11,372 nt of DNA from a virus. Its lineage: Duplodnaviria; Heunggongvirae; Uroviricota; Caudoviricetes. A program made the translations under genes and the position numbers. The stretch spans positions 1 to 11,372 of the IMG/VR virus record IMGVR_UViG_2529293140_000004. The stretch is one strand, 5' to 3'. The notes beneath the pieces were generated by a model, which was not told the DNA's origin, made no database searches, and worked only from the letters and a program-made list of their open reading frames with translations. Positions 11,046 through 11,372 of this stretch are shown one piece after another (the first letter of the stretch is position 1; every line of letters begins with the position of its first letter).

Positions 11046-11372
11046 TTAACCAAACGTCTCTTCAGGCCACTGGCTGGCGATAACTTTCCCCACAACGGAA
11101 CAACTCTCATTGCATGGGATCATTGGGTACTGTGGGTTTAGTGGTTGTAAAAACACCTGACCGCTATCCCTGATCAGTTTCTTGAAGGTAAACTCATCAC
11201 CCCCAAGTCTGGCTATGCAGAAATCACCTGGCTCAACAGCCTGCTCAGGGTCAACCAGAATTAACATCCCGTCAGGAAAACTAGGTTTGGATCCTGTTGG
11301 CGCGGTCATGGAATTACCTTCAACCTCAAGCCAGAATGCAGAATCACTGGCTTTTTGGTTGTGCTTACCCAT
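11046..11372 (-). CDS. cI: Lambda-type cI repressor, C-terminal (LexA/S24-like) domain; partial at the window edge and apparently frameshifted relative to lambda cI
   Basis: ORF-track product …[101 protein letters not shown] matches the lambda cI C-terminus as recalled. The homopolymer at plus 11352-11356 has 5 T (A5 on the coding strand) where lambda has 6. Confidence 0.85.

Follow-up and report, generated by a model that had tools for sequence, protein, structure and literature searches.

Judged from the assemblies, the run of five adenines (A5) that throws the cI repressor gene out of frame at the right end of the virus record IMGVR_UViG_2529293140_000004 is very probably a homopolymer called too short, close to the end of a contig, in a draft genome of Escherichia coli E482 that contains gaps. 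In the living strain, cI is most likely a normal, full-length gene of the lambda/HK97 immunity type, which codes for 237 aa and carries six adenines (A6) at this site. A homopolymer sequencing error was one of three causes proposed for the frameshift in an earlier reading made without database searches (hereafter the sequence-only reading), and it is the one favoured here by the clustering of singleton run losses, by a scaffold gap within the gene and by the error-ridden state of the other assemblies that carry the same short ORF. The other two proposals, a repressor reduced to its DNA-binding domain in a defective or non-inducible prophage and slippage-dependent expression, fared worse. The case is a caution, in that an apparent frameshift in a repressor gene, with tempting consequences, would go back to a run length misread in an old draft with gaps, and the gene calls of that draft have spread a spurious 108-aa "peptidase S24" (EGB37334.1) to public protein collections.

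The A5 run and the split cI gene

The window (by which we mean the whole stretch of 11,372 nt analysed in this work) matches exactly, as its reverse complement, scaffold GL871809.1 (691 kb; L133) of the E. coli E482 assembly GCA_000190835.1. Searching for exact copies of two ORFs, the 108-aa one at the window's right end and a TolA-like one of 284 aa, led to this scaffold, which contains both. At the right end of the window the minus strand is ATGGGTAAGCACAACC-AAAAA-GCCAGTGATTCTGC, the run being located at 11356..11352 (T5 at 11352..11356 of the plus strand) and corresponding to codons 135-136 of cI (Met = 1). Base-for-base alignment to HK97, lambda and two E. coli prophages revealed A6 at this site with flanks identical to those of the window, which bears out the one-base loss proposed in the sequence-only reading. 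The lambda sequence on which that proposal relied, ACC AAA AAA GCC (WVSTTKKASDS), proved right in the alignment to lambda cI.

As written, the N-terminal frame of cI at the window end (11306..11371, minus strand) encodes WVSTTKK followed by 14 out-of-frame residues (21 residues in the translation) and terminates with a TGA codon at 11308..11306. The C-terminal frame (ATG GGT AAG CAC AAC CAA AAA GCC AGT GAT TCT at the window end, minus strand) stays open from the ATG (11372..11370) onwards and codes for the 108-aa product. The translation thus agrees with the consequence foreseen from the letters, i.e. an early stop and a C-terminal domain on the other frame, and confirms that the two parts of cI, the N-terminal one and the C-terminal protease/oligomerisation domain, lie in different frames in the record. 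The position of the ATG exactly at the window edge has no biological meaning, because the window was cut at the start of the called 108-aa ORF: it spans 5268..16639 of L133 and is bounded by the start of this ORF and the stop codon of a xis/torI-like ORF, with position 1 being the last base of the stop codon of the latter and 11372 the A of the ATG of the former.

The minus-strand segment 11046..11372 is the 3' part of a cI gene of lambda/HK97 immunity, encoding the S24 peptidase domain of autocleavage and oligomerisation, and was called as a separate ORF of 108 aa, which appears at NCBI as "peptidase S24 [Escherichia coli E482]". The cI part of the window is 99.9% identical to HK97 cI DNA, residues 8-108 of the product are identical to residues 137-237 of HK97 cI (itself of lambda immunity and distinguished from lambda cI by two amino acids), PF00717 (Peptidase_S24) matches the product, and the context of the catalytic Ser and Lys is present (EGNSM and TFKKL). 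The product therefore has the same C-terminal domain as the LexA-like, S24-family repressors of HK97 and lambda (NP_037735.1, NP_040628.1), and the gene has the same neighbours as in HK97, with gp49, gp48 and N on the left and OR, cro and CII on the right (L127, L133), where O-like and DnaB-like genes were also found.

The right 2.6 kb of the window (cI, gp49, gp48, N) shares about 99.7% identity with the immunity region of HK97, and in the window's immunity region, right of about 8,800, we found no unique substitutions, the A5 run being the sole unique change. The remainder is a lambdoid operon of the early-left type, mosaic in structure, with genes for a TolA-like protein, cIII, kil, a Rad52-type recombinase, ssb, anti-RecBCD, ea22-like, DUF551 and xis/torI. 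Just downstream of cI, at the place taken in lambda by rexA/rexB, lies a 51-aa ORF (MNTFSIIAIPFFALSVVLLTLGATRKNQASFIVGGVFMASCVVNAIIGMSL; 10813..10968, minus strand) with two hydrophobic stretches and a GAGG 5 nt before its ATG, which is unannotated in the HK97 record. Its DNA is identical in all 20 relatives, and its conservation is therefore uninformative on selection.

The cI locus beyond the window edge

The cI locus of the scaffold extends just past window position 11372 (L127, 9361..10327) and was aligned to the cI genes of HK97 and of the AHM8C212RI prophage. Over 651 aligned nt there are zero substitutions, and the sequences differ only by run lengths and by a stretch of 320 N. At nt ~71 of the gene an A7 run is shortened to A6, which shifts the frame of the DNA-binding domain at codon ~26. 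The 320-N stretch, which stands for only 63 nt of the 714-nt gene, is a scaffold gap of estimated size and not a mask of the same length. A T6 run 20 nt past the gap is shortened to T4, and about 105 nt past the gap comes the A6 to A5 loss of the window, so that all three indels are found within about 170 nt of the gap. The sequence-only reading had suggested inspecting the DNA past the right edge for the N-terminal frame and for a compensating indel. We found no such indel upstream in the scaffold cI; the frame is not restored, and the upstream part instead contains the gap and adds -1 and -2, which brings the net change to -4. No N-terminal cI gene was called in the source scaffold, and in the 9 kb right of cI we found no other unique run lengths.

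The DNA encoding HVQAGMF, with the Ala-Gly self-cleavage site, lies just outside the window (L127, about 9940-9960) and is in frame only once the run lengths are corrected. As the record stands, the helix-turn-helix N-terminal domain is likewise not in the frame of the C-terminal domain. However, the DNA of the N-terminal domain is present and has no substitutions compared to HK97, and for this reason we attribute the mismatch between the two frames to errors in the record. The same applies to the comparison with HK97 and lambda cI as a whole: the missing A at codons 135-136, the two further run losses and the gap in the scaffold are best taken for mistakes of the record and not for differences of the gene itself.

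Each of the three run lengths is a singleton against more than 100 relatives. The first cI run is A7 in 113/113 relatives, the T run is T6 in 125/125, and the site of the A5 run is A6 in 126/126 of the relatives compared (in an earlier homopolymer scan it was T6, on the plus strand, in 110/110). Exact matches to a 31-mer containing A5 numbered 0 in collections of viral, genome and metagenome contigs, while the corresponding A6 31-mer gave 119 matches in the viral contig collection. An 80-nt A5 query hit 1,331 places in 1,127 complete E. coli records, as well as 98 phage records, and its identity to them was below 99% throughout. A5 is thus absent from about 1,330 cI copies of complete genomes, from the 98 phage records and from the 119 viral contigs. 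Among complete genomes, no record with the same prophage was found that covers at least 80% of the window.

The state of the scaffold locus lends no support to the repressor consisting of the DNA-binding domain only, nor to the defective or non-inducible prophage derived from it, since in the record the N-terminal domain is itself broken (A7 to A6, the gap, T6 to T4). It also bears on slippage-dependent expression, according to which a -1 ribosomal shift at C AAA AAG would make wild-type cI from the A5 template, with the Lys-tRNA slipping from AAG to AAA and giving ...TTKK-ASDS.... From the decoding logic, a -1 shift at AAA AAG would restore exactly the wild-type residues. The A AAG motif is shift-prone in E. 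coli, and the dnaX site (A AAA AAG) would offer a close parallel, with an AAA AAG Lys-Lys pair at the frame junction and a -1 shift that leads to the wild-type product. Unlike the dnaX-type site, the heptamer considered here starts with C and does not conform to X XXY YYZ, so that re-pairing of the tRNA in the P site would leave a mismatch at the first position; moreover, the motif arises from one lost base, and A5 occurs in no relative, so there is no conservation of a programmed site. The N-terminal frame is already broken upstream by the two other run losses and the gap, and because of these breaks a single shift cannot rescue the protein. The upstream breaks and the absence of A5 from clean relatives practically exclude this mechanism, to which we assign a vanishingly small probability.

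A real deletion would make cI of the E482 prophage a pseudogene with several slippage frameshifts, in a prophage that is defective or cryptic, or whose silence is due to a second repressor of identical immunity present in the cell. We consider it improbable. That -1 slippage in runs is a frequent natural route to the loss of cI speaks for it: among the spontaneous mutants of lambda cI recovered in a forward-mutation assay, 30% had 1-bp deletions, and these all lay in runs, at nt 58, 71 and 79, with a hotspot at nt 71 and none at the nt 403 run (PMC7198004). The hotspot is the very A7 run that is short in the scaffold. On the other hand, the cro, cII, replication, nin, Q and lysis genes look intact (L127, L133), and a cI-null prophage of this kind would be expected to kill its host. 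Base substitutions exceed indels roughly tenfold in E. coli mutation-accumulation studies, and three frameshifts accompanied by no substitution in 651 nt do not have the pattern of neutral decay. The crowding of the lesions around the gap and the absence of A5 from the cI copies surveyed above also argue against a real deletion.

Run lengths in the window and in a second assembly

Every homopolymer of at least 5 nt in the window was compared with the relatives for run length. The comparison revealed a second singleton loss at 5842..5846 (plus strand T5, coding minus strand A5), where 12 relatives have T6, 1 has TTTTCC and none has five bases; in a further count it was A6, on the coding strand, in 12/12. 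It falls in a conserved early-left gene for a coiled-coil "TolA-like" protein (5672..6639, minus strand), represented in the relatives by CDSs of 969 nt. As written, the gene is cut by the loss and codes for 284 aa (5785..6639); one base added at 5842..5846 extends the product to 322 aa, with a C-terminus (last 54 residues) identical to that of the protein annotated in strain CS5L, also of 322 aa. At 247, 4195, 4531, 6999, 9543, 10646 and 10933 the window has runs of 6-7 whose lengths agree with the relatives.

We considered systematic undercalling of all long runs and rejected it, since most runs of 6-7 match the relatives. An apparent unique indel at 8795 was also rejected, as in the BLAST alignments it coincides with the edge of a mosaic boundary. 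Because most long runs in the window and the 9 kb right of cI are normal, the errors would be local and concentrated by the scaffold gap. The undercalling is non-uniform, and the explanation by error therefore needs poor coverage locally, near the gap and at one other site. In this respect the data differ from a uniform homopolymer error, and the correct calling of most long runs is a point in favour of a real deletion.

Strain E482 is also represented by a Logan assembly of run SRR024131 (L134), which aligns to the window over 7,889 nt with 0 mismatches; the 2 gaps of the alignment are located in T runs. One is the run at 8443..8448, with T6 in the scaffold vs T5 in L134, within a 285-aa ORF (7789..8646) that is intact in the window and split by the T5 of L134 into ORFs of 43, 69 and 209 aa. 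The other is an intergenic run at 9560..9566, with T7 in the scaffold vs T8 in L134, whose length varies among the relatives (T6 in 26, T7 in 22, T8 in 7). Since the two assemblies differ solely at homopolymers, homopolymer length is demonstrably unstable in this data set. The L134 contig starts with AAAAAGCCAGTG, inside the A run of cI, which is where a k-mer graph would break on a disagreement in run length or on failed coverage. The loss in the TolA-like gene is present in L134 as well and is therefore a property of the consensus of the reads and not of one assembler; its presence in two assemblies can also be counted for a real deletion.

The lesions resemble the homopolymer errors of flow-based or nanopore sequencing in several respects: each shortens a homopolymer of 6-7 nt, all are singletons, clustered by a scaffold gap without accompanying substitutions, assemblies of the same strain differ from each other solely at homopolymers, and the "allele" recurs in assemblies rich in errors (see below). 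The reads would have come from a flow-based platform, probably 454 pyrosequencing, the read depth around the 320-N gap would have been low, and the raw reads would on balance be in favour of A6. GL-series scaffolds and SRR02xxxx runs of that era are typically products of 454 pyrosequencing, a technique known for errors in homopolymer run length.

If A5, and perhaps the other losses, were real in E482, a lambda-immunity prophage with an inactivated repressor would persist in a natural isolate, which we regard as quite improbable. Its persistence could be due to second-site defects, to a repressor that another prophage supplies in trans or to wild-type cI made by -1 slippage at CAAAAAG at a low level. 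The survival of such a cI-null lambdoid prophage in wild E. coli would be of modest interest for the study of prophage domestication. Our literature search for strain E482 found no publications.

Other carriers of the 108-aa ORF and the left end of the prophage

The 108-aa ORF recurs in other assemblies, all of them with run-length losses of their own. One is a lambda sequence with rexA and rexB (L128), which shows 11 one-base run losses and 2 mismatches in 2.6 kb, and another lambda sequence (L130) has 8 indels and 0 mismatches. Three further carriers of an identical 108-aa ORF contain 6 (L132), 4 (L129) and 1 (L131) homopolymer losses. The recurrence of the ORF in error-prone assemblies, including those of lambda, indicates that it is a recurrent database artefact and not an allele, and it counts further against a real deletion in E482. 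In cluster mates such as P0014 the linker is out of frame between three homopolymer sites and the frame is regained at the A run of cI, a pattern that three undercalls totalling -3 would give.

The cluster of the spurious 108-aa ORF (P0003, P0004, P0014) is present in public protein sets under several names, among them "repressor protein CI [E. coli TA054]" and "LexA family protein [Selenomonas sputigena]". The Selenomonas sputigena member, encoded on a contig of 655 nt, is probably a lambda-type contamination. A cI-like protein of 216 aa, with the linker misframed between homopolymer sites, was found in some assemblies of complete-genome scale.

At the opposite end of the prophage, to the left of window position 1 (L133, 16439..16823), host genes for a LysR-type regulator and a GntP permease come directly after the xis/torI-like gene. 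No integrase gene adjoins the xis/torI-like gene, and the same arrangement is observed in strains CS5L and E2348/69. The int gene may be located at the other end of the prophage, or the left end may be truncated.
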